The notes under the pieces were generated by a model. That model worked only from the letters and a program-made list of their open reading frames with translations. It ran no database searches and was not told where the DNA came from. 64,000 bases of DNA, taken from the IMG/VR virus record IMGVR_UViG_2537561946_000006, one strand, 5' to 3'. Every line of letters begins with the position of its first letter. Position 1 is the first letter of the stretch. Below are positions 1 to 49,810 of the stretch, piece by piece. Source of the stretch: a virus (lineage: Duplodnaviria > Heunggongvirae > Uroviricota > Caudoviricetes). A program made the translations under genes and the position numbers.

Positions 1-780
1 ATGCATCGTATAGACACGAAAACCGCGCAGAAGGATAAGTTCGGCGCGGGTAAGAACGGTTTTACCCGTGGTAACCCCCAGACCGGCACGCCTGCCACCG
101 ATCTGGATGATGACTACTTTGACATGTTGCAGGAGGAACTTTGCAGCGTGGTGGAGGCATCCGGTGCCAGCCTGGAGAAGGCGCGGCACGACCAGTTGCT
201 TACCGCGCTTCGTGCGCTGCTGTTAAGCCGCAAAAATCCGTTTGGCGATATCAAATCGGATGGCACGGTGAAAACGGCTCTCGAAAACCTTGGTTTGGGA
301 GAAGGCTCTGCATTACCTGTTGGTGTCCCTGTTCCGTGGCCTTCCGCCACTCCGCCAACAGGCTGGCTGAAATGCAACGGTGCGGTTTTTTCTGCTGAAG
401 AATACCCGGAACTGGCAAAGGCTTATCCGACAAATAAATTGCCTGATTTACGTGGTGAGTTTATTCGTGGTTGGGATGACGGGCGCGGTATTGACGCGGG
501 GCGCGAAATTCTGTCTGCTCAGGGGGATGCTATTCGTAATATAACCGGCACATTTGGTAATGGACAAACCGAAGCTAATGCGGCTATTAGCTTTAATACA
601 GCGAGTGGTGTTTTTGTAAGTCAATCAGCACTTCGTAATACGATAGGTAACACCACAATCATTCCAAATACCCCAAACAATCCTCATTTAGTCAATTTTG
701 ATGCTTCAAGAGTAGTGCCAACTGCCTCAGAGAACAGACCAAGAAACATTGCATTTAACTATATCGTGAGAGCAGCATAA
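1..780 (+). CDS. stf: side tail fibre protein, C-terminal part (5' end outside window); arm currently in expressed orientation
   Basis: ORF reaches window edge; C-terminus ...[14 protein letters not shown] matches the lambda Stf / e14 StfE-type C-terminal domain; invertase crossover site lies inside the gene. Confidence 0.85.
278..303. other. pixL-type invertase crossover site (hix/gix/cix family)
   Basis: CTCTCGAAAACC-TT-GGTTTGGGAGAA, imperfect 26-bp palindrome; inner half is the exact reverse complement of the inner half at 2036-2047. Confidence 0.55.
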
Positions 781-1382
781 TGGATAAAGCAATATTAAAT
801 AGTGGACTTGTTGCTACAAAGGCAGGGGATATTACCGTTTATAACTATGATGGTGAAACGCGGGAATATATTTCCACATCAACTGAATATCTTGCGGTTG
901 GCGTCGGTATCCCGGCATGTTCTTGTTTAGATGCACCAGTTACACATAAAGCTGGTTATACAATTTGCCGTTCTGTGGATTTAAAATCATGGGAATATGT
1001 GTCAGACCATCGCGGTGAAATCGTCTATAACACCGAAACGGGAGACGCCAAAGAAATCACAGCTCCGGGTGATTACCCTGAAAATACAACCACTATCGCC
1101 CCGTTAACGCCATATGATAAATGGGATGGTGAGAAATGGGTGACGGATACTGAGGCACAGCATAGCGCCGCAGTAGAAGCGGCAGAAGCACAGCGCCAGT
1201 CACTGATTGATGCAGCAATGGTTTCCATTAGTCTGATTCAGCTGAAATTACAGGCCGGACGGAAGTTGACGCAGGCAGAAACAACCCGACTTAACGCCGT
1301 GCTGGATTACATTGACGCGGTGACGGCAACAGATACCAGCACCGCGCCGGATGTCATCTGGCCTGAACTGCCGGAGGCGTAG
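780..1382 (+). CDS. tfa: tail fibre assembly protein
   Basis: 200 aa, starts at stf stop, convergent and overlapping with second tfa; typical Tfa size and position. Confidence 0.85.
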   Translation: MDKAILNSGLVATKAGDITVYNYDGETREYISTSTEYLAVGVGIPACSCLDAPVTHKAGYTICRSVDLKSWEYVSDHRGEIVYNTETGDAKEITAPGDYPENTTTIAPLTPYDKWDGEKWVTDTEAQHSAAVEAAEAQRQSLIDAAMVSISLIQLKLQAGRKLTQAETTRLNAVLDYIDAVTATDTSTAPDVIWPELPEA

Positions 1383-1806
1383 GCCATTCAATATCTGGAG
1401 CACTGGAGGTATCAACCAGTTCCAGTGCGTCCAGATAATCCAGCCACAAATTATATTGCGCCAGTTCATCATCTTTCAGACGACCAATAGCGGCTTTACC
1501 GGGCCATTGCTTACTGTTCATGTATTCGTTGGCCTGGTTAATTAGTAGCTGTCTTTCTGATTCTGTAATTTCAATAAGTTCTTCATGCGTGGGTGGAGGA
1601 ATATCTGCCCACGCAGGCAGCCCATCATCTCCGGCAATACGAATTTTTCCTTGTGGCGGTTCAGCCATAAACTCACTGATAATATTTTGATTTACTTCCT
1701 TAGCGTCTGATAAATCCCATCCCTCTGATTTATATTTATCAATCATATCCACAGGGAAAAAAGCATTATGCCTTGCGCTATAAACATATTCGTTCATATA
1801 AATCAC
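1354..1806 (-). CDS. tfa: alternative tail fibre assembly protein (silent orientation)
   Basis: 147-150 aa (ATG at 1797 or 1806); C-terminal ...SSAPDIEWPTPP mirrors ...STAPDVIWPELPEA of the plus-strand Tfa; Mu U/U'-like arrangement. Confidence 0.75.
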   Translation of the reverse strand: MIYMNEYVYSARHNAFFPVDMIDKYKSEGWDLSDAKEVNQNIISEFMAEPPQGKIRIAGDDGLPAWADIPPPTHEELIEITESERQLLINQANEYMNSKQWPGKAAIGRLKDDELAQYNLWLDYLDALELVDTSSAPDIEWPTPPAVQAR

Positions 1807-2035
1807 CCTGAATAAAATTACTCACCAACAGCCCACCAACTGTAATTCATCGATACCGTGTCGCTGGTTGATGACGTTCTGTAAGCAGAATTAAAGCCGG
1901 TTAACGTTGGGCCTTCTGCAGTCATCACGAACCCTCGCCCAGCGCCTAAAGGCGCACCGCCATCACCAGAATGAGTAAGCATGGCTCGTATAACTTCGTA
2001 TAATGTATGCTATACGAAGTTATACGTTTTGCCGC
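1807..2035 (-). pseudogene. remnant of alternative tail-fibre C-terminal arm, interrupted by loxP
   Basis: minus-strand frame from pixR reads GLGEAAKR + loxP peptide ITSYSIHYTKLY then stops; a separate 56-codon frame (MLTHSGDGG...SMNYSWWAVGE) ends at 1807 next to tfa start; arm is far shorter than the 157-codon plus-strand arm. Confidence 0.45.
1990..2023. other. loxP site, 34/34 match to wild type
   Basis: ATAACTTCGTATA-ATGTATGC-TATACGAAGTTAT read directly. Confidence 0.9.
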
Positions 2036-2061
2036 TTCTCCCAAACCAACGTTTATGAAAA
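2036..2061. other. pixR-type invertase crossover site
   Basis: TTCTCCCAAACC-AA-CGTTTATGAAAA immediately upstream of pin. Confidence 0.55.
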
Positions 2062-2115: not shown

Positions 2116-2670
2116 ATGCTTATTGGCTATGTACGTGTGTCAACAAATGACCAGAACACAGATCTACAACGTAATGCGCTGAACTGTGCAGGATGTGAGC
2201 TGATTTTTGAAGACAAGATAAGCGGTACAAAGTCCGACAGACCAGGACTGAAAAAGCTGCTCAGGACATTATCGGCAGGTGACACGCTGGTGGTCTGGAA
2301 ACTGGACCGACTGGGGCGCAGTATGCGGCATCTTGTCGTGCTGGTGGAGGAGTTGCGCGAACGAGGCATCAACTTTCGTAGTCTGACGGATTCAATTGAT
2401 ACCAGTACCCCAATGGGGCGCTTTTTCTTTCATGTGATGGGTGCCCTGGCTGAAATGGAGCGTGAACTGATTGTTGAACGAACAAAAGCTGGACTGGAAG
2501 CAGCTCGCGCACAGGGACGAATTGGTGGACGTCGCCCCAAACTTACACCAGAACAATGGGAGCAGGCCGGACGATTAATTGCATCAGGCGTTCCTCGCCA
2601 GAAGGTGGCGATCATCTATGATGTTGGTATATCGACACTGTATAAGAAGTTTCCGGTCGGAGATAAATGA
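2116..2670 (+). CDS. pin: DNA invertase, serine recombinase of the Hin/Gin/Cin/Pin family
   Basis: MLIGYVRVSTNDQNTDLQ... catalytic Ser near N-terminus, 184 aa, C-terminal HTH; ATG at 2116 preceded by GGGAG. Confidence 0.95.
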   Translation: MLIGYVRVSTNDQNTDLQRNALNCAGCELIFEDKISGTKSDRPGLKKLLRTLSAGDTLVVWKLDRLGRSMRHLVVLVEELRERGINFRSLTDSIDTSTPMGRFFFHVMGALAEMERELIVERTKAGLEAARAQGRIGGRRPKLTPEQWEQAGRLIASGVPRQKVAIIYDVGISTLYKKFPVGDK

Positions 2671-2730: not shown

Positions 2731-3600
<870 letters not shown>

Positions 3601-3683
3601 CTAACCCTTTGAATTTACATAGCGCAAAAAGATACCTTTCCTCATAATGTGAGCTAATTTTATGTTTCGTTTGATGATCGGGT

Positions 3684-3745
3684 CGGTCTCGAAAACCGGA
3701 GTGGGGGCAACTCCACCGGGGGTTCAAATCCCCCTCTCTCCGCCA
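3684..3745 (+). repeat. att core: 3' 62 nt of tRNA-Ser (serU-type), no 5' half
   Basis: CGGTCTCGAAAACCGGAGTGGGGGCAACTCCACCGGGGGTTCAAATCCCCCTCTCTCCGCCA; differs from copy at 53848 by a compensatory pair in the variable arm. Confidence 0.8.
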
Positions 3746-3797
3746 AAATTCAATCACTTACACATCATTAAGTCAGTGACAAAAATCACACTTGGAA

Positions 3798-4823
3798 TTA
3801 CTTGGAATATTTTCTTGGAATATTTTCAGGTAACGGGACATCAAGTGTTGGTGAAACTTTAACCTTCCTGTCATAGATTAGCACTTGCCCTTCGGTTTTG
3901 TGACCAGAGAAAAGTTGCTTATCCCGGCTGCTTCCTTCATAGTCTGAAATTCCTTTCGCCTTCAGATCATGAAAGGTGAAGTCGGTTAAAATACCTGAAA
4001 TTTTGCCTGCGTGATTTCTTGCTTCTACCCACATTTCGTTAAAGCCTTTGTACATATATCGGTTGCCGTATTGATTGCTGATTACATAGGCGGATGTTGG
4101 TAACTGTTTTGCTTTTTCGATCGCCGCCTGTAATCGTGGACTCCATGCTTTTATCTGTTTTTTCCCTGTTTTCCCTTGCTGGATAAAGATCCCGTCGTTT
4201 CCAATCTGCTCCCATTTCAGCGATAACACATCGGAAACCCTCGCTGCACACAGATAGGCAATTTCCATTGCGATAAAAACAGGAAGAGGTGCAACGCTTA
4301 ATACTGCCTGGTATTCTTTGTCGGTTACATATCGTTCGCGGTTTTTGGCCTTGAATTTACTTACACCTGCACATGGGTTAGCCTTCACGTATCCTCGCTC
4401 ATACCCCCAACTATAAACGCGCGACATACTGCTTTTTTCATGGTTTGCCTGCGTTTTACTCTGCTCGCCTCTTTTGTCCATGTATCGTCTGATGTGCTCT
4501 GGTTTTACAGAATCGGCCAGCACCTTACCGAATACGGCCAGCAGCTTTTTTTGATGTTGCAGATAATCTTTTTGAGTTCTAGGACTAAGCTCGCTGTAAT
4601 AGGCGCTGGCGAGAAATTTTTCCCACAAACGCCCAAATGTCATTGCGCGATCGCGATGGTTAACCGTTTCTTCATACTTTTTCCATAATGCGGCTAAACC
4701 ATCCTCGATTGCAGTTAAGGTTACAGATTCTCTGGATGTCGGTTTCCATACATAACTATATTTATTGGGGTATACCTTTGGCGGTAATTTTTCGTGTTCG
4801 GGATTTTTCCTTCGTCTTCCCAT
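3798..4823 (-). CDS. int: tyrosine integrase
   Basis: 341 aa, C-terminal ...FHDLKAKG...LIYDRKV motifs; 3' end faces att core. Confidence 0.95.
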   Translation of the reverse strand: MGRRRKNPEHEKLPPKVYPNKYSYVWKPTSRESVTLTAIEDGLAALWKKYEETVNHRDRAMTFGRLWEKFLASAYYSELSPRTQKDYLQHQKKLLAVFGKVLADSVKPEHIRRYMDKRGEQSKTQANHEKSSMSRVYSWGYERGYVKANPCAGVSKFKAKNRERYVTDKEYQAVLSVAPLPVFIAMEIAYLCAARVSDVLSLKWEQIGNDGIFIQQGKTGKKQIKAWSPRLQAAIEKAKQLPTSAYVISNQYGNRYMYKGFNEMWVEARNHAGKISGILTDFTFHDLKAKGISDYEGSSRDKQLFSGHKTEGQVLIYDRKVKVSPTLDVPLPENIPRKYSK

Positions 4824-20363: not shown

Positions 20364-20439
20364 GGCCCTTTAGCTCAGTGGTGAGAGCGAGCGACTCATA
20401 ATCGCCAGGTCGCTGGTTCAAATCCAGCAAGGGCCACCA
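20364..20439 (+). tRNA. tRNA anticodon CAU (Ile2/Met-type, ileZ-like)
   Basis: GGCCCTTTAGCTCAGTGG...ACTCATAATCG...GGTTCAAATCC...AAGGGCCACCA, 76 nt. Confidence 0.9.
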
Positions 20440-20539
20440 TCACATACCGCCATTAGCTTATCAGGAAGAGCAGACGACACCATAACAGGGTTGTTGGTGC
20501 GGGGGCGGGTCCCCGATGGCGGTCCATTATCGGTATTCT

Positions 20540-20616
20540 GCGTTGTTAGCTCAGCCGGACAGAGCAATTGCCTTCTAAGCAATCGGTCAGTGGTTCGACT
20601 CCACTACAACGCGCCA
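20540..20616 (+). tRNA. tRNA-Arg anticodon UCU (argN/argO-like)
   Basis: GCGTTGTTAGCTCAGCC...CCTTCTAAGC...GGTTCGACTCC...ACAACGCGCCA, 77 nt. Confidence 0.9.
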
Positions 20617-38225: not shown

Positions 38226-40785
38226 TCTTGTTATTGACCTGAGTCTGGATGCGGTCCGTTTCGATGAGCAGATGAGCCGGGTAAGGCGTCATTTTTCCGG
38301 ACTGGAGACTGACGCCAGAAAAACCGCCGGTGTTGTTGAGCAGAACCTGAGTCGTCAGGCGCTGGCTGCACAAAAAGCCGGGATTTCCGTCGGGCAGTAT
38401 AAAGCGGCCATGCGAACCCTGCCCGCACAGTTTACGGATATCGCCACGCAGCTTGCCGGTGGTCAGAATCCCTGGCTGATCCTGCTGCAACAGGGCGGTC
38501 AGGTGAAGGACTCCTTCGGCGGGATGATCCCCATGTTCAGGGGACTTGCCGGTGCGATCACCCTGCCGATGGTCGGGGTCACCTCGCTGGCGGTGGCGAC
38601 AGGTGCGCTGGCGTACGCCTGGTACCAGGGGGATTCCACGCTTTCAGCGTTTAATAAAACCCTGGTTCTTTCCGGTAATCAGTCCGGACTGACTGCCGAT
38701 CGCATGCTGACGCTCTCCAGAGCCGGACAGGCCGCAGGGCTGACGTTTAACCAGGCGAGTGAGTCACTGGCAGCCCTGGTGAATGCCGGTGTGCGTGGTG
38801 GTGAACAGTTTGATGCCATCAACCAGAGTGTCGCGCGTTTTGCTTCTGCATCCGGTGTGGAGGTGGACAAGGTTGCAGAGACTTTCGGAAAACTGACCAC
38901 CGACCCGACGTCGGGACTGATGGCGATGGCGCGCCAGTTCCGTAACGTGACGGCAGAGCAGATTGCGTATGTTGCACAGCTGCAGCGTTCCGGAGACGAG
39001 GCCGGGGCATTGCAGGCGGCGAACGATATCGCCACGAAAGGCTTTGATGAGCAGACCCGTCGCCTGAAAGAAAACATGGGAACACTGGAGACCTGGGCGG
39101 ATAAAACAGGGAAGGCATTCAAATCGATGTGGGATGCCATTCTGGATATCGGTCGTCCTGAGTCCTCAGCGGATATGCTCGCCAGTGCACAGAAGGCATT
39201 TGATGAGGCGGATAAAAAATGGCAGTGGTACCAGAGCCGGAGCCAGCGCCGGGGAAAAACCGCCTCTTTCCGGGCCAACCTTCAGGGCGCATGGAATGAC
39301 CGGGAAAATGCCCGTCTGGGGCTGGCAGCGGCCACGCTGCAGTCGGATATGGAAAAAGCCGGTGAACTGGCCGCCAGGGACCGGGCCGAACGGGACGCAT
39401 CACAGCTGAAGTATACCGGAGAGGCGCAGAAGGCGTATGAGCGTCTGCTGACGCCGCTGGAGAAATATACCGCCCGTCAGGAAGAACTGAATAAGGCCCT
39501 GAAAGACGGGAAAATCCTGCAGGCGGATTACAACACGCTGATGGCGGCGGCGAAAAAGGATTATGAATCGACGCTGAAAAAGCCGAAGTCGTCAGGAGTC
39601 AAAGTGTCAGCCGGTGAGCGTCAGGAAGACCTGACGCATGCAGCCCTGCTGGCGCTTGAAACCGAGCTCCGGACGCTGGAAAAACACAGCGGTGCGAATG
39701 AGAAAATCAGCCAGCAGCGTCGCGATTTATGGAAAGCGGAAAATCAGTATGCGGTCCTGAAAGAGGCAGCCACGAAACGGCAGTTATCTGAGCAGGAAAA
39801 ATCCCTGCTGACCCATGAGAAAGAGACGCTGGAGTACAAACGCCAGCTGGCTGAGCTGGGAGACAAAGTTGAACACCAGAAACGGCTGAATGAGCTGGCA
39901 CAGCAGGCTGCGCGGTTTGAACAGCAGCAGAGTGCGAAGCAGGCGGCAATCAGCGCAAAAGCCCGCGGACTCACCGACCGTCAGGCGCAGCGGGAGTCGG
40001 AAGAGCAGCGCCTTCGTGACGTGTACGGTGATAATCCGGATGCGCTGGCGAAGGCCACATCTGCACTGAAGAACACCTGGTCTGCGGAGGAGCAGCTTCG
40101 TGGAAGCTGGATGGCCGGTCTGAAGTCCGGCTGGGGCGAGTGGGCAGAAAGTGCGACGGACAGTTTTTCGCAGGTTAAAAGCGTGGCCACGCAGACCTTT
40201 GACGGTATTGCACAGAATATGGCAGCGATGCTGACCGGCAGCGAACAGAGCTGGCGTGGTTTCACCCGTTCTGTGCTCTCCATGCTGACAGAGATTTTTC
40301 TGAAGCAGGCCATGGTGGGGATTGTCGGGAGTATTGGCAGCGCCATGGGTGGTGCTTTCGGTGGTGGGGCGTCTGCCTCCACGGGGACGGCCATTCAGGC
40401 TGCGGCGGCGAACTTCCATTTCGCGACCGGAGGATTTACGGGAACCGGTGGCAAATACGAACCTGCCGGTATTGTCCACCGCGGGGAGTTTGTCTTCACG
40501 AAGGAGGCAACCAGCCGGATTGGCGTCGGCAACCTGTATCGTCTGATGCGCGGGTATGCGGAAGGTGGTTATGTGGGCGGTGCCGGAAGTCCGGCGCAGA
40601 TGCGGCGGGCGGAAGGCATTAGTTTTAATCAGAACAATCACGTGGTGATTCAGAACGACGGCACCAACGGACAGGCGGGGCCGCAGCTGATGAAGGCGGT
40701 GTATGACATGGCCCGCAAGGGGGCGCAGGATGAGATTCAGGCGCAGATGCGTGATGGCGGCGTCTTTTCCGGAGGCAGGCGATGA
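38206..40785 (+). CDS. H: tail tape measure protein
   Basis: 859 aa, coiled-coil rich, lambda gpH position. Confidence 0.95.
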   Translation: MSQPVGDLVIDLSLDAVRFDEQMSRVRRHFSGLETDARKTAGVVEQNLSRQALAAQKAGISVGQYKAAMRTLPAQFTDIATQLAGGQNPWLILLQQGGQVKDSFGGMIPMFRGLAGAITLPMVGVTSLAVATGALAYAWYQGDSTLSAFNKTLVLSGNQSGLTADRMLTLSRAGQAAGLTFNQASESLAALVNAGVRGGEQFDAINQSVARFASASGVEVDKVAETFGKLTTDPTSGLMAMARQFRNVTAEQIAYVAQLQRSGDEAGALQAANDIATKGFDEQTRRLKENMGTLETWADKTGKAFKSMWDAILDIGRPESSADMLASAQKAFDEADKKWQWYQSRSQRRGKTASFRANLQGAWNDRENARLGLAAATLQSDMEKAGELAARDRAERDASQLKYTGEAQKAYERLLTPLEKYTARQEELNKALKDGKILQADYNTLMAAAKKDYESTLKKPKSSGVKVSAGERQEDLTHAALLALETELRTLEKHSGANEKISQQRRDLWKAENQYAVLKEAATKRQLSEQEKSLLTHEKETLEYKRQLAELGDKVEHQKRLNELAQQAARFEQQQSAKQAAISAKARGLTDRQAQRESEEQRLRDVYGDNPDALAKATSALKNTWSAEEQLRGSWMAGLKSGWGEWAESATDSFSQVKSVATQTFDGIAQNMAAMLTGSEQSWRGFTRSVLSMLTEIFLKQAMVGIVGSIGSAMGGAFGGGASASTGTAIQAAAANFHFATGGFTGTGGKYEPAGIVHRGEFVFTKEATSRIGVGNLYRLMRGYAEGGYVGGAGSPAQMRRAEGISFNQNNHVVIQNDGTNGQAGPQLMKAVYDMARKGAQDEIQAQMRDGGVFSGGRR

Positions 40786-41111
40786 AAACATTTCGCTGGA
40801 AAGTGAAGCCGGATATGGAGGTGAACTCGCAGCCATCGGTGCGTGAAGTGCGTTTTGGTGACGGGTATTCGCAGCGTATGGCGGCGGGGCTGAATGCTGA
40901 CCTGAAAACATACCGTGTGACGCTTTCCGTGACCCGGGAGGAGGCCCGACATCTGGAGGCATTCCTGGCAGAGCACGGTGGCTGGAAGGCGTTTCTGTGG
41001 ACACCGCCTTATGCCTGGCGGCAGATAAAGGTGACCTGTGCCGCCTGGTCATCACGGGTTCGCATGCTGCGGGTTGAATTCAGCGCGGAGTTTAAGCAGG
41101 TGGTGAACTGA
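40782..41111 (+). CDS. M: minor tail protein M
   Basis: 109 aa lambda gpM homologue. Confidence 0.9.
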   Translation: MKTFRWKVKPDMEVNSQPSVREVRFGDGYSQRMAAGLNADLKTYRVTLSVTREEARHLEAFLAEHGGWKAFLWTPPYAWRQIKVTCAAWSSRVRMLRVEFSAEFKQVVN

Positions 41112-41809
41112 TGCAGGATATTCACGAAGAAAGTCTGAACGAGTCGGTTAAATCAGAGCAGTCACCGCGGGTGGTACTCTGGGAAATCGACCTGACGGTA
41201 CAGGGTGGTGAGCGGTATTTTTTCTGTAATGAGCTGAATGAAAAAGGGGAGCCGGTCACCTGGCAGGGGCGGAAGTACCAGGCATACCCGATTGACGGCA
41301 GCGGCTTTGAGATGAACGGGAAGGGCAGCAGTGCCAGACCGTCGATGACGGTGTCCAATCTGTTCGGTCTGGTCACCGGGATGGCGGAAGACCTGCAGAG
41401 TCTGGTGGGGGCCACGGTGGTCCGCCGCCGGGTGTATGCGCGTTTTCTGGATGCGGTGAATTTTGTGGCGGGCAATCCGGAAGCGGACCCGGAGCAGGAG
41501 CTGAGCGACCGCTGGGTGGTGGAGCAGTTATCAGAGCTGACGGCCATGACGGCCTCGTTTGTGCTGGCCACACCGACCGAGACGGACGGGGCGCTGTTTC
41601 CCGGTCGCATCATGCTGGCGAACACCTGTATGTGGACCTACCGCTCTGATGAGTGTGGTTACACGGGCGGGGCGGTGGCGGATGAGTTCGATAAACCCAC
41701 CACGGATATCCGGAGGGACAGATGCAGCAAGTGCATGCGCGGGTGTGAGATGCGCGGCATGGTGGCTAATTTTGGCGGTTTCCTTTCCATTAATAAACTT
41801 TCGCAGTAA
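41111..41809 (+). CDS. L: minor tail protein L
   Basis: 232 aa lambda gpL homologue. Confidence 0.9.
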   Translation: MQDIHEESLNESVKSEQSPRVVLWEIDLTVQGGERYFFCNELNEKGEPVTWQGRKYQAYPIDGSGFEMNGKGSSARPSMTVSNLFGLVTGMAEDLQSLVGATVVRRRVYARFLDAVNFVAGNPEADPEQELSDRWVVEQLSELTAMTASFVLATPTETDGALFPGRIMLANTCMWTYRSDECGYTGGAVADEFDKPTTDIRRDRCSKCMRGCEMRGMVANFGGFLSINKLSQ

Positions 41810-41819
41810 ATCCCGGTTT

Positions 41820-42563
41820 ATGACACAGACTGAATCAGCGATTCTGGCGCATGCCCGGCGGTGTGCGCCTGCGGAGTCGTGCGGCTTCGTGGTGAGAACG
41901 CCGGAGGGGGAGCGGTATATCCCTTGTGTGAATATCTCTGCAGAGCCGGAGGCGTATTTTCGTATTGCACCGGAAGACTGGCTGTGGGCAGAGATGCAGG
42001 GGGAGATTGTGGCACTGGTCCACAGTCATCCCGGTGGTCTGCCCTGGCTGAGCGAGGCCGACCGGCGGCTGCAGATAAAAAGTGCACTGTCCTGGTGGCT
42101 GGTCTGCCGGGGGGAAATTCATAAATTCCGCTGTGTACCACATCTGACAGGACGGCGCTTTGAGCACGGGGTGACGGACTGTTACACGCTGTTCCGGGAT
42201 GCCTGCCATCTGGCGGGAATTGATATGCCGGATTTTGAGCGTGAGGATGACTGGTGGCGCAACGGTCAGAACCTTTACCTGGACAATATGGCGGTCACCG
42301 GCTTTTACCGGGTGCCCCTGTCCTCTGCACAGGCGGGCGATATCCTGCTGTGCTGCTTTGGCGCATCGGTGGCCAATCATGCCGCCATTTACTGCGGCAA
42401 CGGTGAACTGCTTCACCATCTGCCTGAACAACTGAGTAAACGGGAGAGGTATTCTGAAAAATGGCAACGACGAACGCATTCTGTCTGGCGTCACCGCCAC
42501 TGGTCCGCATCTGCCTTCACGGGGATTTACAACGATTTGGCCGCCGCCTCAGCCTGTATGTGA
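41820..42563 (+). CDS. K: tail assembly protein K (JAB/MPN plus NlpC/P60)
   Basis: ATG at 41820; HSHP and C..H motifs; listed ORF has spurious upstream extension. Confidence 0.85.
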   Translation: MTQTESAILAHARRCAPAESCGFVVRTPEGERYIPCVNISAEPEAYFRIAPEDWLWAEMQGEIVALVHSHPGGLPWLSEADRRLQIKSALSWWLVCRGEIHKFRCVPHLTGRRFEHGVTDCYTLFRDACHLAGIDMPDFEREDDWWRNGQNLYLDNMAVTGFYRVPLSSAQAGDILLCCFGASVANHAAIYCGNGELLHHLPEQLSKRERYSEKWQRRTHSVWRHRHWSASAFTGIYNDLAAASACM

Positions 42564-43141
42564 ACACGGCAGCGGAAGCCATCCGTGCCCTGTCGATGCA
42601 GATGCCGGGATTCCGCCGTCAGATGAACGAAGGCTGGTACCAGATACGTATTCGCGGTGAGGACACGGCACCGGAGGCGGTGTACGCCCGTCTTCACGAA
42701 CAGCTGGGTGAGGGAACGGTCATCCACATTGTGCCGCGACTGGCCGGGGCCGGAAAGGGTGGACTGCAGATTGTGCTGGGGGCGGCAGCCATCGTGGGCT
42801 CTTTCTTCACTGCCGGGGCATCAATGGCGTTATGGGGTTCAGCCCTGGCAGCCGGTGGTTTTTCTGCCACCACGATGCTGTTTTCACTGGGGGCCAGCAT
42901 GATTCTGGGCGGTGTGGCCCAGATGCTGGCCCCGAAGGCAAAAACACCGGATTACCGCGCAACGGATAACGGCAGACAGAACACGTACTTTTCCTCGCTG
43001 GATAACATGATTGCCCAGGGGAACCCGATGCCGGTGCCTTACGGTGAAATGCTGGTTGGCTCCCGCCGTATATCCCAGGACATCAGTACCCGTGATGAAG
43101 GCGGTGACGGGAAGGTGGTGGTTATCGGGCGGCAGGCATAA
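42461..43141 (+). CDS. I: tail assembly protein I
   Basis: 226 aa lambda gpI homologue. Confidence 0.85.
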   Translation: MATTNAFCLASPPLVRICLHGDLQRFGRRLSLYVNTAAEAIRALSMQMPGFRRQMNEGWYQIRIRGEDTAPEAVYARLHEQLGEGTVIHIVPRLAGAGKGGLQIVLGAAAIVGSFFTAGASMALWGSALAAGGFSATTMLFSLGASMILGGVAQMLAPKAKTPDYRATDNGRQNTYFSSLDNMIAQGNPMPVPYGEMLVGSRRISQDISTRDEGGDGKVVVIGRQA

Positions 43142-43331
43142 AAGCGAAAAAATCCCGCAGTGCTCACGGACAGGAACTGCGGGAGAGTTACGAAGATTGA
43201 GTGTAAGGAATTATTCTTATGTCACGACAAAAACATTAACTCAGAGAGGGAGGATGCGCCGTTCTTTTCAGGGAGAAAGGATTTATCGTCCTGAGGAATA
43301 AAGGTAAGGGGCCCGCCCCTTACCTGACTGA

Positions 43332-43859
43332 TTATTGAATGATGCCGCAGGCCATTCTCGCACCACCACCGCCCAGGGGCTCCGGATGGTCATGATGGTT
43401 ATCACCGCCAGCATGAAGCATGAGAGAACGCCCTTTAATCTCTTTTAATGAGTTCAGTCTCGGGGCCAGGACCGGGTAGTTCGCTTTTCCGTCATGCGTC
43501 ACGAACAGCGCAGGGAGGTCGCCCAGGTGTCCATCCGGAGACCAGGGGCCAAGATGTTTGCCGGTGTTTTTCGGGTCAAAGTGACCGCCAGCCGATAATG
43601 CTGCGACCGGTTTTCCGTCTTTCAGTGCCGGGGCGCAATTTCCTTTTTCGTGCACATGAAAACCATGAATGCCTTCAGACAGAGAGTGAAGGGCTGGTGT
43701 GAACAGCAGACCGTAGGGGGTCTCCTGAATGGTTATTTTTCCAATGCTGACTTCTTTTCCGTCAGCACTGACAAGGTTCATTGGGACTTCCTGTTCTGCT
43801 GCGTATCCGCATGATGCTGCTGTCAGCATGGCAATGGCAGCAATGATTTTACATTTCAT
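43332..43859 (-). CDS. sodC: periplasmic Cu,Zn superoxide dismutase (prophage moron)
   Basis: 175 aa from ATG at 43857-43859; signal peptide [36 protein letters not shown] and [10 protein letters not shown] blocks. Confidence 0.9.
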
Positions 43860-43992
43860 AAAACCCTCATTAATTCCGTTAACAGACTGAGCTTGCTGGT
43901 TACAGGGTAACAAACAGCGTTCTGATGATATCGCGCAATAGCTGTGCAATATCCTATCACTGCGATTAATAATACCAATTGAGAGGAACATT

Positions 43993-46900
43993 ATGGGTAA
44001 AGGTGGCGGCAGGGCGCACACGCCGGTTGAGGTAAAGGACAATCTTAAGTCCACGCAGATGATGAGCGTGATTGATGCCATTGGTGAAGGGCCGATTGAA
44101 GGTCCGGTGAAGGGGCTGCAGAGTATCCTGGTGAACAAAACCCCGCTGACGGACACGGACGGCAATCCTGTGATACATGGTGTGACAGCGGTCTGGCGCG
44201 CCGGGGAGCAGGAGCAGACACCACCTGAAGGCTTTGAGTCCTCCGGGGCGGAAACCGCACTGGGCGTGGAAGTGACGAAGGTAAAGCCGGTGACGCGCAC
44301 CATTACGTCCGCGAACATTGACCGCCTGCGGGTCACCTTCGGGGTGCAGTCACTGTTGGAGACCACCTCAAAGGGCGACCGTAATCCCTCTTCTGTCCGA
44401 CTGCTGATTCAGTTGCAGCGTAACGGTAACTGGGTGACGGAAAAGGATGTCACCATTAACGGCAAGACCACCTCACAGTACCTGGCGTCGGTGATTCTGG
44501 AGAATCTGCCTGAGCGGCCCTTTAACATCCGGATGGTCCGGGAGACAGCGGACAACACCTCGGACCAGCTGCAGAATAAGACGCTCTGGTCGTCATACAC
44601 CGAAATCATCGATGTGAAACAGTGCTACCCGAACACGGCGATTGTGGGGTTGCAGGTGGATGCGGAGCAGTTTGGCGGTCAGCAGATGACGGTGAACTAC
44701 CATATCCGCGGTCGCATCATCCAGGTACCGTCAAACTATGACCCGGAAAAACGCACGTACAGCGGCATCTGGGACGGCAGCCTGAAACCGGCATACAGCA
44801 ACAACCCGGCCTGGTGCCTGTGGGACATGCTGACTCACCCGCGCTACGGCATGGGAAAACGTCTGGGGGCGGCAGACGTGGACAAATGGGCGCTGTATGC
44901 CATTGCGCAGTACTGCGACCAGACGGTCCCGGATGGTTTCGGGGGCACAGAGCCGCGGATGACCTTTAATGCGTACCTGTCACAACAGCGTAAGGCGTGG
45001 GACGTTCTCAGTGATTTCTGCTCGGCGATGCGCTGTATGCCGGTATGGAACGGCCAGACGCTGACGTTCGTTCAGGACCGCCCGTCGGATGTGGTGTGGC
45101 CGTACACCAACTGCGATGTGGTGGTGGATGATAACGGCGTGGGGTTTCGCTACAGCTTCAGCGCCCTGAAGGACCGCCACACGGCGGTGGAGGTGAATTA
45201 CACCGACCCGCAGAACGGCTGGCAGACCTCCACGGAACTGGTGGAAGACCCGGAAGCCATACTGCGCTACGGGCGCAACCTGCTGAAGATGGATGCGTTC
45301 GGCTGCACCAGTCGCGGTCAGGCCCACCGTGCCGGGCTGTGGGTGATAAAGACCGGACTGCTGGAAACGCAGACGGTGGATTTCACGCTCGGGTCACAGG
45401 GGCTGCGTCACACACCCGGTGACATTATTGAAATCTGTGATAACGACTATGCCGGGACCATGACCGGCGGACGTATCCTGTCCATCGATGCCGCCCGCCG
45501 CACCCTGACACTGGACCGTGAGGTGACCCTGCCGGAGACAGGTGCCGCCACGGTGAACCTGATTAACGGCAGCGGTAGGCCGGTGAGCGTGGCCATCACT
45601 GCACACCCCGCGCCGGACCGGATACAGGTCAGCACCCTGCCTGATGGTGTGGAGACATACGGTGTATGGGGGCTCTCCCTGCCGTCACTGCGTCGTCGCC
45701 TGTTCCGCTGTGTCTCCATCCGGGAAAACACGGACGGCACCTTTGCCATCACGGCGGTGCAGCACGTACCGGAAAAAGAAGCCATCGTGGATAACGGGGC
45801 CAGCTTTGAGCCGCAGTCAGGCACCCTGAACAGCGTTATTCCACCGGCAGTGCAGCACCTGACGGTGGAGGTGAGCGCGGCTGACGGTCAGTATCTGGCA
45901 CAGGCGAAATGGGACACGCCGCGGGTGGTGAAGGGTGTGCGCTTCAGTCTGCGCCTGACCAGTGGAAGCGGTGAAAACAGCCGCCTGGTGACCACCGCCA
46001 TCACCGCAGACACGGCGCACCGTTTCAGTGGCCTGCCGCTCGGGGAATACACCCTGACAGTCAGGGCAATTAACAGTTATGGCCAGCAGGGCGAACCGGC
46101 CACCACCACCTTCCGGATTAACGCGCCAGCAAAACCCGCCACCATTGAACTGACGCCGGGGTATTTTCAGATAACGGCGGTACCGGTGCTGGCGGTGTAT
46201 GACCCGACGGTACAGTTTGAATTCTGGTTCTCCGAAAAACGCATCACGAACACGGCACAGGTGGAAAAATCTGCCCGTTATCTGGGGACCGGCAGTCAGT
46301 GGACTGTCCAGGGGAGCCGGATTAAGCCGGGGACGGATTTCTGGTTTTATGTGCGCAGCGTCAATCTGGTGGGCAAGTCTGCGTTTGTGGAAGCCAGCGG
46401 GCAGGCCAGTAATGATGGTGAAGGGTATCTGGAAATTTTCCGGGAAAAAATAGGAAAACTGCATCTGGCTCAGAGGTTGTGGGAACTGATAGATAACAGC
46501 CAGCTTGCAGATGAGATGGCGGAGATGAAGACCAGCATCACGGAAACCCGCAATGAAATCACACAGACGGTCAACAAAACACTGGAGAACCAGAGCGCCA
46601 CCATACAGCAGATACAGCGCGTGCAGAAGGACACAAATGATGACCTGGCTGCACTCTACATGCTGAAAGTACAAAAAACCAAAAACGGCATTCCTTATGT
46701 GGCCGGGATTGGTGCAGGGATTGAGGATACTGATGGCCAGCCACTGAGCAACATACTGCTGCTGGCTGACCGTATCGCGATGATAAATCCGGAGAGCGGC
46801 AACAGCACTCCGTTATTTGTGGCGCAGGGGAATCAGCTGTTCATGAACGACGTGTTCCTGAAACGACTGTTTGCGGTGAGCATCACCTCGTCCGGCAATC

Positions 46901-47469
46901 CCCCAGCATTTTCCCTGACGCCGGAAGGAAAGCTGACGGCAAGGAACGCGGATATCAGCGGAGCAATTACCGCGAATACCGGCACGCTCAATAATGTCAC
47001 CATTAACGAGAACTGTGTCATCAGAGGGAAACTGTCTGCAAACCAGATTGAAGGCGACCTGGTGAAGACGGTGGGGAAAGCCTTTCCCCGGAATAACAGT
47101 TATGCCAGCGGTACGGTAACCGTCACAGTTTACGATGACCAGGGCTTCGACCGGCAGATTATCATTCCCCCGGTGCTGTTTCGCGGGACGAAACACCAGA
47201 ATTTCAACAGCCCGAATCAGCAGTCGTACTGGTATTCCACCTGTAAGCTGCAGGTGCTGAAGAACGGGGTTGAGATTTTCCATGAACCGGCAACGGATGT
47301 CAGCCGGGTGTTCTCATCGGTGATAGATATGCCGGCAGGGCGGGGTCATGTCACCCTGACGTTTAATGTGTCGTCGGCCGGTGCGAACAACTGGACGCCG
47401 ACAACGTACATCAGTGATTTACTGGTTGTGGTCATGAAAAAATCCACGGCAGGGATCAGTATCAGCTGA
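43993..47469 (+). CDS. J: tail tip / host specificity protein J
   Basis: 1158 aa, [38 protein letters not shown]... collinear with lambda gpJ. Confidence 0.95.
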
Positions 47470-47537
47470 CGGTTTATTAACCCGGACGGGCACCTCAGGA
47501 GGTGCCTTTTTTATTGACTGAAAACAAAGAGGTAATC

Positions 47538-48161
47538 ATGCGGCATTTATACGCAACGATATTATTGTTTACTACCCTGCTGGCAGGAATTGCCTTTCCT
47601 GCACAGGCTGAAAGCGGACACGGTGCATTTTCTGTGGGGTACACACAGGTGCACCCGGACGGTACGCCAGGGCTTTCCGGTACCGGCATCAGGGCCGGCG
47701 ATCTGAAAGGGATTAATGTGAAATACCGTTATGAGTTCACGGATCACCTGGGCGGCATTGTCGCGCTGAGTTATGCATCGGTGAAGAAAAGTGACACGAT
47801 GAAGACGGGTGAAAATACCTTCCATTATGAAAGCCTGCGCGGTCGTTATGTCAGTCTGATGGCCGGCCCTGTCTGGCAGCTCAGTGAGCGGGTCAGTCTC
47901 TATGGCATGGCCGGGATGGCGTACACCCGCTGGTCTGACAGTGTTCAGGATTACCGGCGTGATGAAGTGAAACCGGGGTATGTGAAGGAGACCACCACCG
48001 CCAGTGATGGTCATACTGCGCGTCATCTGTCGCCGGCCTGGAATGCCGGGATTCAGTTCAGTCCCGTAGAGACGGTGGTTATTGACCTTGCTTATGAAGG
48101 TTCCGGCAGTGGCGACTGGCGCACTGACGGTTTCATCGTGGGTGTCGGCTATAAATTCTGA
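47538..48161 (+). CDS. lom: Lom outer-membrane protein (Ail/Lom family)
   Basis: ATG at 47538; ...YEGSGSGDWRTDGFIVGVGYKF C-terminus identical to lambda Lom. Confidence 0.9.
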   Translation: MRHLYATILLFTTLLAGIAFPAQAESGHGAFSVGYTQVHPDGTPGLSGTGIRAGDLKGINVKYRYEFTDHLGGIVALSYASVKKSDTMKTGENTFHYESLRGRYVSLMAGPVWQLSERVSLYGMAGMAYTRWSDSVQDYRRDEVKPGYVKETTTASDGHTARHLSPAWNAGIQFSPVETVVIDLAYEGSGSGDWRTDGFIVGVGYKF

Positions 48162-48225
48162 TTAGCCAGGTAACACAGTGTTATGACAGCCCGCCGGTTC
48201 AGGCGGGCTTTTTTGTGGGGTGAAT

Positions 48226-49539
48226 ATGGCAGTAAAGATTTCAGGTGTGCTGAAAGACGGCACAGGAAAACCAATACAGAACTGCACCATTCAACTGAAA
48301 GCCAGACGTAACAGCACCACGGTGGTGGTGAACACGGTGGCCTCTGAAAATCCGGATGAGGCAGGGCGTTACAGCATGGACGTCGAGTATGGTCAGTACA
48401 GCGTCACTCTGTTGGTGGAGGGATTCCCTCCATCACATGCCGGGACCATCACCGTGTATGAAGATTCTCAACCGGGGACGCTGAATGATTTTCTCGGTGC
48501 CATGTCGGAGGATGACGTCCGGCCGGAGGCAATGCGTCGTTTTGAACTGATGGTGGAAGAAGCGGCGCGTCACGCAGAGGAGGCGAAGAAGAATGCCGGA
48601 GAGGCGGAGACATCAGCGAGGAATGCCGGCATATCAGCCAGTCAGGCAGAAGAGAGCGCTGCAAATGCTGACACTTCAGCAGGGGATGCATCGGAGTCAG
48701 CCCGGCAGGCGGCAGAAAGTGCAGCCGCTGCAAAGCAGTCAGAGGAGGCGTCCTCGTCCTCGGCCTCTGCGGCCGCTCAAAAAGCCAGTGAGTCATCACA
48801 AAGTGCAGCAGATGCTGAATTGTCAAGAAAGACGGCAGAAAGTGCAGCCGGTAATGCAGCCAGGGATGCAACGACCGCAACAGAAAAAGCCCGGGAGTCA
48901 GCAGAAAGCGCACAGTCAGCGGAACAAAGCAGGATAGCGGCGGAAGAGGCCGTAAACCGAATCCCCACCGTGGTGGGACCTCCCGGGCCAAAGGGGGAAC
49001 AGGGGCCCGCGGGTCCTCAGGGGCCGAAGGGTGATAAGGGAGAGCGCGGTGACACCGGCCCTGTCGGGGCAACCGGCGAACGGGGACCGGCAGGTGATGC
49101 TGGTCCGGCAGGCCCGCAGGGGCCGAAAGGTGACAGGGGAGAGCGGGGAGAGACCGGTCTGACGGGAAATGCAGGTCCACAGGGTCCAAAGGGAGATACC
49201 GGTGCGGCAGGCCCGGCAGGCCCACAGGGACCGAAAGGAGAAACAGGTGCGGCTGGCCCGGTGGGGGCAACCGGACCTCAGGGACCGAAGGGCGACCCGG
49301 GGGAGACACAAATCCGTTTTCGTCTGGGGCCGGCGAGCATTATTGAGACAAACAGCAATGGCTGGTTCCCGGGTACAGATGGTGCGCTCATCACCGGACT
49401 GACCTTTCTTGACCCCAAAGATGCCACACAGGTTCAGGGGCTGTTTCAGCATTTGCAGGTCAGGTTTGGTGACGGGCCGTGGCAGGATGTTAAGGGGCTG
49501 GATGAAGTGGGCAGTGATACAGGCAGAACAGGAGAATGA
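48226..49539 (+). CDS. stf: side tail fibre protein, truncated form with collagen-like Gly-X-Y repeats
   Basis: MAVKISGVLKDGTGKP... lambda Stf N-terminus; GPPGPKGEQGPAGPQGPKGDKGERGDTGP... repeats; lacks the usual C-terminal receptor-binding domain. Confidence 0.8.
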   Translation: MAVKISGVLKDGTGKPIQNCTIQLKARRNSTTVVVNTVASENPDEAGRYSMDVEYGQYSVTLLVEGFPPSHAGTITVYEDSQPGTLNDFLGAMSEDDVRPEAMRRFELMVEEAARHAEEAKKNAGEAETSARNAGISASQAEESAANADTSAGDASESARQAAESAAAAKQSEEASSSSASAAAQKASESSQSAADAELSRKTAESAAGNAARDATTATEKARESAESAQSAEQSRIAAEEAVNRIPTVVGPPGPKGEQGPAGPQGPKGDKGERGDTGPVGATGERGPAGDAGPAGPQGPKGDRGERGETGLTGNAGPQGPKGDTGAAGPAGPQGPKGETGAAGPVGATGPQGPKGDPGETQIRFRLGPASIIETNSNGWFPGTDGALITGLTFLDPKDATQVQGLFQHLQVRFGDGPWQDVKGLDEVGSDTGRTGE

Positions 49540-49540
49540 C

Positions 49541-49810
49541 ATGAACGTACTAAAAAAACTTATGCAGCGTCTGTGCGGGTACGGAAAGCATGATGACCGT
49601 GAACACGGGGAGTTACTTACAGCACAACTGCGTCTGGGGCCGGCAGACATCCTGGAGTCAGATGAGAATGGTATTATTCCGGAGCAGGCCAGGGTAATCA
49701 CGCAGGTGGTGATACTGGATGCGGATAAAAAGCAGATACAGTGTGTGGTAAGACCGCTGCAAATCCTGCGTGCTGACGGGACGTGGGAAAATATTGGCGG
49801 GATGAAGTAA
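49541..49810 (+). CDS. small protein resembling the stf C-terminal module
   Basis: 89 aa; LTAQLRLGPADILESDENGIIPE echoes QIRFRLGPASIIETNSNGWFPG at the stf C-terminus. Confidence 0.4.
   Translation: MNVLKKLMQRLCGYGKHDDREHGELLTAQLRLGPADILESDENGIIPEQARVITQVVILDADKKQIQCVVRPLQILRADGTWENIGGMK

Follow-up and report, generated by a model that had tools for sequence, protein, structure and literature searches.

The window, by which we mean the whole 64-kb stretch of DNA that was analysed, opens with a tail-fibre gene, followed by two tail-fibre assembly genes, part of a second fibre arm and a gene for a small DNA invertase. Two inverted crossover sites bound the segment in which most of these elements lie. 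The features of the region are as follows:

1-780, plus strand: stf, the expressed tail-fibre gene (259 aa; open reading frame with a Pfam Collar match, 1.9e-15)
278-303: left 26-bp crossover site, pixL-like, CTCTCGAAAACC-TT-GGTTTGGGAGAA (identical at 26/26 positions to the K-12 e14 site at L016:2779)
780-1382, plus strand: tfa, the TfaE-like tail-fibre assembly chaperone gene of the expressed arm (200 aa; Pfam Caudo_TAP, 4.6e-32)
1354-1806, minus strand: tfa', the TfaP-like chaperone gene of the silent arm (147-150 aa; Pfam Caudo_TAP, 8.2e-32)
1818-1982/1985, minus strand: 3' portion of the silent fibre arm, an open reading frame comprising the last ~54-55 codons (Gp53-like C-terminal domain, StfP-like)
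1986-2026: insert read as non-biological, matching the 454 Titanium / Cre-lox mate-pair linker at 41/42 nt, with loxP at 1990-2023
2027-2035, minus strand: opening codons of the silent arm, next to the right crossover site on the segment side (..EAAKR)
2036-2061: right 26-bp crossover site, pixR-like, TTCTCCCAAACC-AA-CGTTTATGAAAA (26/26 identical to K-12 e14 at L016:4606)
2116-2670, plus strand: pin, encoding a small serine DNA invertase (184 aa, Ser9 present; Pfam Resolvase 1.3e-51 and HTH_7 3.9e-13)
2138-2200: candidate recombinational enhancer inside pin, near its 5' end, at a distance of ~97 bp from the right site (pair of Fis-like 15-mers, centred at 2145 and 2193, with a weak consensus match)

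The longest inverted repeat within the first 4 kb pairs positions 285-304 with 2035-2054 (20 nt, 95%). Together with a comparison of the half-sites, this repeat search bore out the claim of an earlier sequence-only reading that two inverted 26-bp sites with identical inner halves lie here: the inner half-sites of 278-303 and 2036-2061 are exact reverse complements, and their central dinucleotides are equivalent when orientation is considered (TT/AA). Two 26-bp sites in inverted orientation with a common central 2-bp core are what is expected of the Din family of invertases. The 14-mer TTCTCCCAAACCAA occurs in two exact copies in the 64-kb window, one per strand, and the inversion repeat of e14, TTGGTTTGGGAGAAGG, is present at 290-305, where it overlaps the left site. 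The invertible segment between the two sites measures ~1.76 kb.

The stf gene consists of a constant N-terminal part, which extends to about base 290, and a variable C-terminal arm that carries the tail-collar domain and lies inside the segment. A protein identical to the Stf of the window was found in 47 blocks of public assemblies. Open reading frames and Pfam matches agree that the expressed arm, i.e. the 259-aa Stf and its 200-aa Tfa, is intact, as had been proposed. The tfa gene shares 90% DNA identity with K-12 tfaE, the K-12 copy being oppositely oriented. On the other strand, tfa' is convergent with tfa and overlaps its 3' end; its counterpart is annotated as a gene of 146-147 aa in relatives. 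Both genes gave full-length Caudo_TAP matches, and the description of two convergent tfa genes between the sites can be upheld. The remnant of the silent fibre arm at 1818-1985 is collinear with a 136-aa Gp53-like_C gene of relatives. As in Din-family systems, where the promoter too lies outside the segment, alternative fibre 3' ends with their cognate tfa genes reside inside the segment and the constant 5' end lies outside.

The pin gene adjoins the segment and encodes a catalytic domain followed by a C-terminal helix-turn-helix, the layout of a Din-family invertase. Pin is identical to K-12 PinE at 177/184 positions (96%), its N-terminus, MLIGYVRVS, carries Ser9, and the protein matches the Gin structures 3uj3 and 4m6f with E ~1e-95. 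In the Hin and Gin systems, Fis sites of a known consensus lie 48 bp apart. Two degenerate 15-mers resembling this consensus are found at 2145 and 2193, likewise 48 bp apart, although the match is weak and a similar pair arose in 46 of 2000 shuffles (2.3%). The region is conserved with K-12 pinE, though it is also coding sequence. The position of the pair fits that known for the enhancer of this invertase family and tentatively suggests that an enhancer could lie here.

The intact invertible segment of e14 had been named as a suitable comparison, and the match proved close. In addition to the crossover sites (26/26 each) and Pin (177/184), the window shares the gene order and both arm types of the e14 P segment/PinE system of K-12 (stfP-tfaP-tfaE-stfE-pinE), and the end of ymfQ upstream is identical over the 25 bases available. 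The orientation is opposite to that of the MG1655 reference e14: the window expresses the TfaE-type arm, which is silent and inverted (tfaE, stfE) in MG1655. Two further differences concern the surroundings. Whereas mcrA follows pin in e14 of K-12, the window has a LEM-3-like GIY-YIG gene there, and whereas e14 of K-12 sits at icd, the location of the window resembles that of the CP-933H/pao-region element of O157:H7. The more distant G/Gin system of Mu and C/Cin system of P1 use small serine invertases of one family with Pin (match to Gin structures at E=1e-95) and follow the same logic, with the constant 5' part of the fibre gene outside and alternative 3' ends plus chaperones inside the segment. 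Their phage backbones and fibre arms differ from those of the window, and the segments are ~3 kb for Mu G and ~4.2 kb for P1 C, against ~1.76 kb here.

Both orientations of the segment, as expected for the Din family, occur in relatives. Among complete E. coli genomes with this segment type, 69 had the orientation of the window and 60 the flipped one. When the segment of an intact relative (L005; 99.5% identical over the segment) was flipped in silico at the site centres, a complete 209-aa StfP-like fibre resulted, such that the fibre of this relative would have 259 aa in one state and 209 aa in the other. The flipped segment occurs as a single piece, at 99.9% identity, in E. coli XH988. We also considered O157:H7 PA20 as a flipped state, since the product name 'tail fiber protein' stands on its silent arm; this strain has the same orientation as the window, and only the name differs. 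Two pairs of strains from the same series carry the segment in opposite orientations, namely CH425 (4,740,899 bp) and CH458 (4,740,891 bp), and O155 NWU_3 and NWU_1. Such pairs of near-equal genome size but opposite orientation suggest that switching takes place on very short time scales. For the P segment of e14, inversion by PinE, PinQ and PinR at TTGGTTTGGGAGAAGG was demonstrated experimentally, and 33% of 562 deposited genomes were found to be inverted (PMC12529663).

Loci that encode an identical Pin protein were found in both states and with varied arm cassettes. In one such set (L136-L145, identical 184-aa Pin), the pairs of fibre arms differ (Collar, Gp53-like or no Pfam match) and the tfa products range from 128 to 201 aa; judging from these sequences, cassettes appear to have been shuffled and the invertase and its sites conserved. 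The homologous fibre gene in CP-933H of O157:H7 EDL933 (L004, 4836-5890) runs straight into a truncated phage replication gene, all of the morphogenesis region having been lost, yet the invertible segment and pinE are intact. Collectively, the e14-identical sites, the 96% identity to PinE and the presence of both orientations in relatives corroborate the proposal that this is a Pin invertase switch which exchanges the fibre C-terminus together with Tfa. By analogy with these systems, we infer that the switch is active in the source strain, E. coli TW07793.

The silent arm of the window is interrupted by an exact wild-type 34-bp loxP at 1990-2023, for which the chance expectation is none. The sequence-only reading had described this arm as having an intact tfa but a truncated, loxP-bearing fibre end; tfa' is indeed intact and the letters are as described, but disablement by loxP is not supported, as the insert matches a sequencing linker. 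Positions 1986-2026 match the linker TCGTATAACTTCGTATAATGTATGCTATACGAAGTTATTACG at 41/42 positions, the sole difference being one T too few in a TT homopolymer run. TCGTATAACTTCGTATAATGTATGCTATACGAAGTTATTACG is documented as a mate-pair adapter, and in one paper as a '454 double-stranded linker' for circularisation (PMC5199103, PMC7038657). The match covers the full 42 nt, including the ends TCGT and TACG that are not part of loxP, with the one-base homopolymer gap as the only exception. The TCGT and ACG ends lie outside loxP, and one would not expect to find them at a generic loxP scar.

Alignment to relatives showed that the insert, composed of TCGT, loxP and ACG (39-41 bases), stands in place of 181-183 native bases, at a cost to the silent arm of 61 codons of the Gp53-like domain. 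The native 181-183 bp are present at this spot in every relative examined. The flanks of the insert occur in 171 of 5426 complete E. coli genomes and, among the matches listed, are 100% identical, spanning 353 bp in those genomes versus 211 bp in the window; loxP was found in this context in none of the 5426. The exact loxP junction was likewise absent from the species-representative genomes and viral contigs searched, and there is no gene call on record with the 47-aa open reading frame that loxP encodes.

The linker itself recurs widely. A scan for TCGT followed by loxP, which covered one genome per bacterial species (loci L017-L135), yielded 147 copies in 119 stretches, all from draft assemblies of unrelated wild bacteria, and in 121 copies TACG follows and completes the linker. 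The taxa include Gemmata, Ca. Paracaedibacter, Legionella, Leptospira, Paenibacillus and Kitasatospora. Ca. Paracaedibacter symbiosus PRA9 accounts for dozens of copies, and Gemmata sp. IIL30, Legionella tunisiensis LegM and Leptospira assemblies whose contigs are named in the style 'ctg11347...' have several apiece; in Litoribacter populi scaffolds, tandem copies lie ~129 bp apart. Presence in a draft shotgun assembly and recurrence in unrelated assemblies are what would be expected of a contaminating linker. The window resembles known cases of 454 Titanium / Cre-lox linker contamination in that it, too, comes from draft whole-genome shotgun data and is identical at 41/42 nt, non-loxP ends included. 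It differs in geometry: where a contaminating linker might sit at a contig end or join distant loci, that of the window joins collinear points 181-183 bp apart.

The window corresponds to contig AFAG02000008.1 (GCA_000194685.2) from base 26 onwards, with 10780/10780 compared bases identical, loxP included. AFAG02 is the assembly of E. coli TW07793, a water isolate of serotype O157:H39, ST1041, phylogroup B2 and eae-kappa, attributed to 'Sanka et al., unpublished' (PMC5039186). The sequence is thus a draft assembly of a wild isolate, and engineering of the strain is not on record. The contig starts 25 bp upstream of the stf start codon, and over this short stretch it is the same as the ymfQ end in e14 and relatives. 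This sequence match indicates that the tail module upstream of stf is probably present in TW07793 on a different contig, the assembly having been broken at this point.

How the linker may have entered the consensus is constrained by geometry. Its flanks are collinear and ~181 bp apart, an arrangement that one proper mate-pair read, which runs from the end of a fragment through the linker to its start, cannot yield. A proper mate-pair read from a flipped molecule was also considered and ruled out, as the order is the same in both orientations and on both strands. As proper mate-pair geometry fails, the join would need either a chimeric read or a pair of reads that were overlapped at their linkers across a small gap in coverage, and we favour such a route into the consensus. 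The gap lies ~10 bp inside the right crossover site, where reads from molecules in mixed orientation diverge, and this divergence may have contributed to it.

Taken together, readings in which the lesion is real, whether engineered or natural, are unlikely. One of these accepts the linker as an artefact but holds that it marks a true difference, i.e. a silent arm that is naturally deleted, rearranged or heterogeneous and thereby caused the assembly gap that was bridged. The closeness of the gap to the right site is in keeping with this, as mixed-orientation reads could break an assembly there, and a further break of the assembly lies 25 bp ahead of stf. We nevertheless regard it as improbable, given that both sides of the linker are 100% identical to O157:H7 genomes with an intact arm, that every inspected relative is intact and that the window shows no sign of a natural lesion.

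It is very improbable that loxP is physically in the chromosome as a Cre/loxP disruption scar, left when a lox-flanked marker was inserted in the silent arm and excised so that one arm was dead. The 34-bp loxP is exact, the replacement of a short internal piece of one gene has the geometry of a targeted knock-out, and a simple mate-pair read does not readily account for the collinear flanks. An engineered deletion scar would be recognised by cassette or primer flanks in a strain with an engineering history; here, the 4 nt that precede loxP and the 3 nt that follow it belong to the sequencing linker, and the source is a wild water isolate for which engineering is not recorded. Moreover, FRT, I-SceI and further lox half-sites are absent from the 64-kb window, and the identical string turns up as a contaminant in many assemblies from unrelated wild organisms. 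The prospect that loxP was picked up in nature from phage P1 or a P1-like plasmid, through Cre-mediated or illegitimate recombination, is negligible: E. coli commonly harbours P1-like elements, whose tail-fibre inversion regions are related to that of the window, but the flanks are a synthetic linker, P1 sequence does not adjoin the site, and the junction was not found in the natural genomes or viral contigs searched.

These considerations bear on the prediction that inversion would produce a truncated fibre. For the letters as given, the prediction is correct: in silico, inversion fuses the constant Stf N-terminus to a product ending ...GLGEAAKR-ITSYSIHYTKLYEPCLLILVMAVRL-stop, which reads through loxP and comprises ~129 aa. 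For the strain it probably fails: the linker replaces bases that are present in all relatives examined, and the predicted truncated fibre is in all likelihood a property of the assembly and not of the strain. Were loxP or another lesion truly present in TW07793, which we consider quite doubtful, the result would be a one-armed ON/OFF switch between a functional fibre and a truncated product of ~129 aa. Such a switch could matter, as the Gp53-like fusion product (StfE2 in K-12) reportedly blocks adsorption of phage T2.

Beyond pin, the window carries elements that are separate from the switch. The LEM-3-like GIY-YIG nuclease-domain gene after pin occupies 2731-3555 on the minus strand, as an open reading frame of 274 aa (257 aa in relatives). 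As e14 of K-12 has the McrA restriction enzyme after pin, a different nuclease-type gene fills the same slot by the invertase in the window. A lambdoid prophage of ~50 kb (~3761-53856) follows, lying between two copies of a 79-bp tRNA-Ser 3' fragment (3683-3760 and 53857-53935, 91% identical), which points to insertion into a tRNA-Ser-like pseudo-att at the end of the pin element; in strain Z1323HEC0423, by contrast, the insertion is in serU itself. The prophage has its integrase at 3798-4823, tRNA-Met (CAT) and tRNA-Arg (TCT) genes at 20364-20616 on the plus strand, and, within 40000-54197, genes that are labelled in relatives as type III effectors, nleB2 and nleH. To its right, the window continues into the CP-933H flank of O157:H7 (AraC-type regulator) at 99.7% identity.

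For the curation of such records, the linker has practical consequences. It removes 61 codons of a gene, and annotators would be misled into recording a pseudogene or regarding the strain as engineered. Copies of this contaminant lie in more than 100 places in species-representative genomes, and any loxP in a 'wild' genome is best compared first with the 42-nt 454/Cre-lox linker.

We consider it very probable that the locus at 278-2670 is a standard switch of the e14 P-segment type and that the disruption of its silent arm is an assembly artefact. In the mechanism that we propose, the constant 5' part of stf lies outside a ~1.76-kb segment bearing two alternative fibre 3' ends, with a separate tail-fibre assembly gene behind each. 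Pin would exchange strands at the central dinucleotide of the two inverted 26-bp sites, probably with the aid of Fis at an enhancer near the 5' end of pin, and the segment would flip. Either fibre tip, Collar-type or Gp53-like, would thereby continue the reading frame of the constant part. The apparent disablement of the silent arm is, with little doubt, best explained as such an artefact: a linker from 454 Cre-lox paired-end circularisation would have been left in the TW07793 draft consensus, where it stands for 181-183 native bp. The switch is another copy of an already known system, the e14 P segment, which is common in E. coli and experimentally characterised. Judged from its sequenced relatives, the second arm of TW07793 itself is most likely intact and its switch fully two-state.
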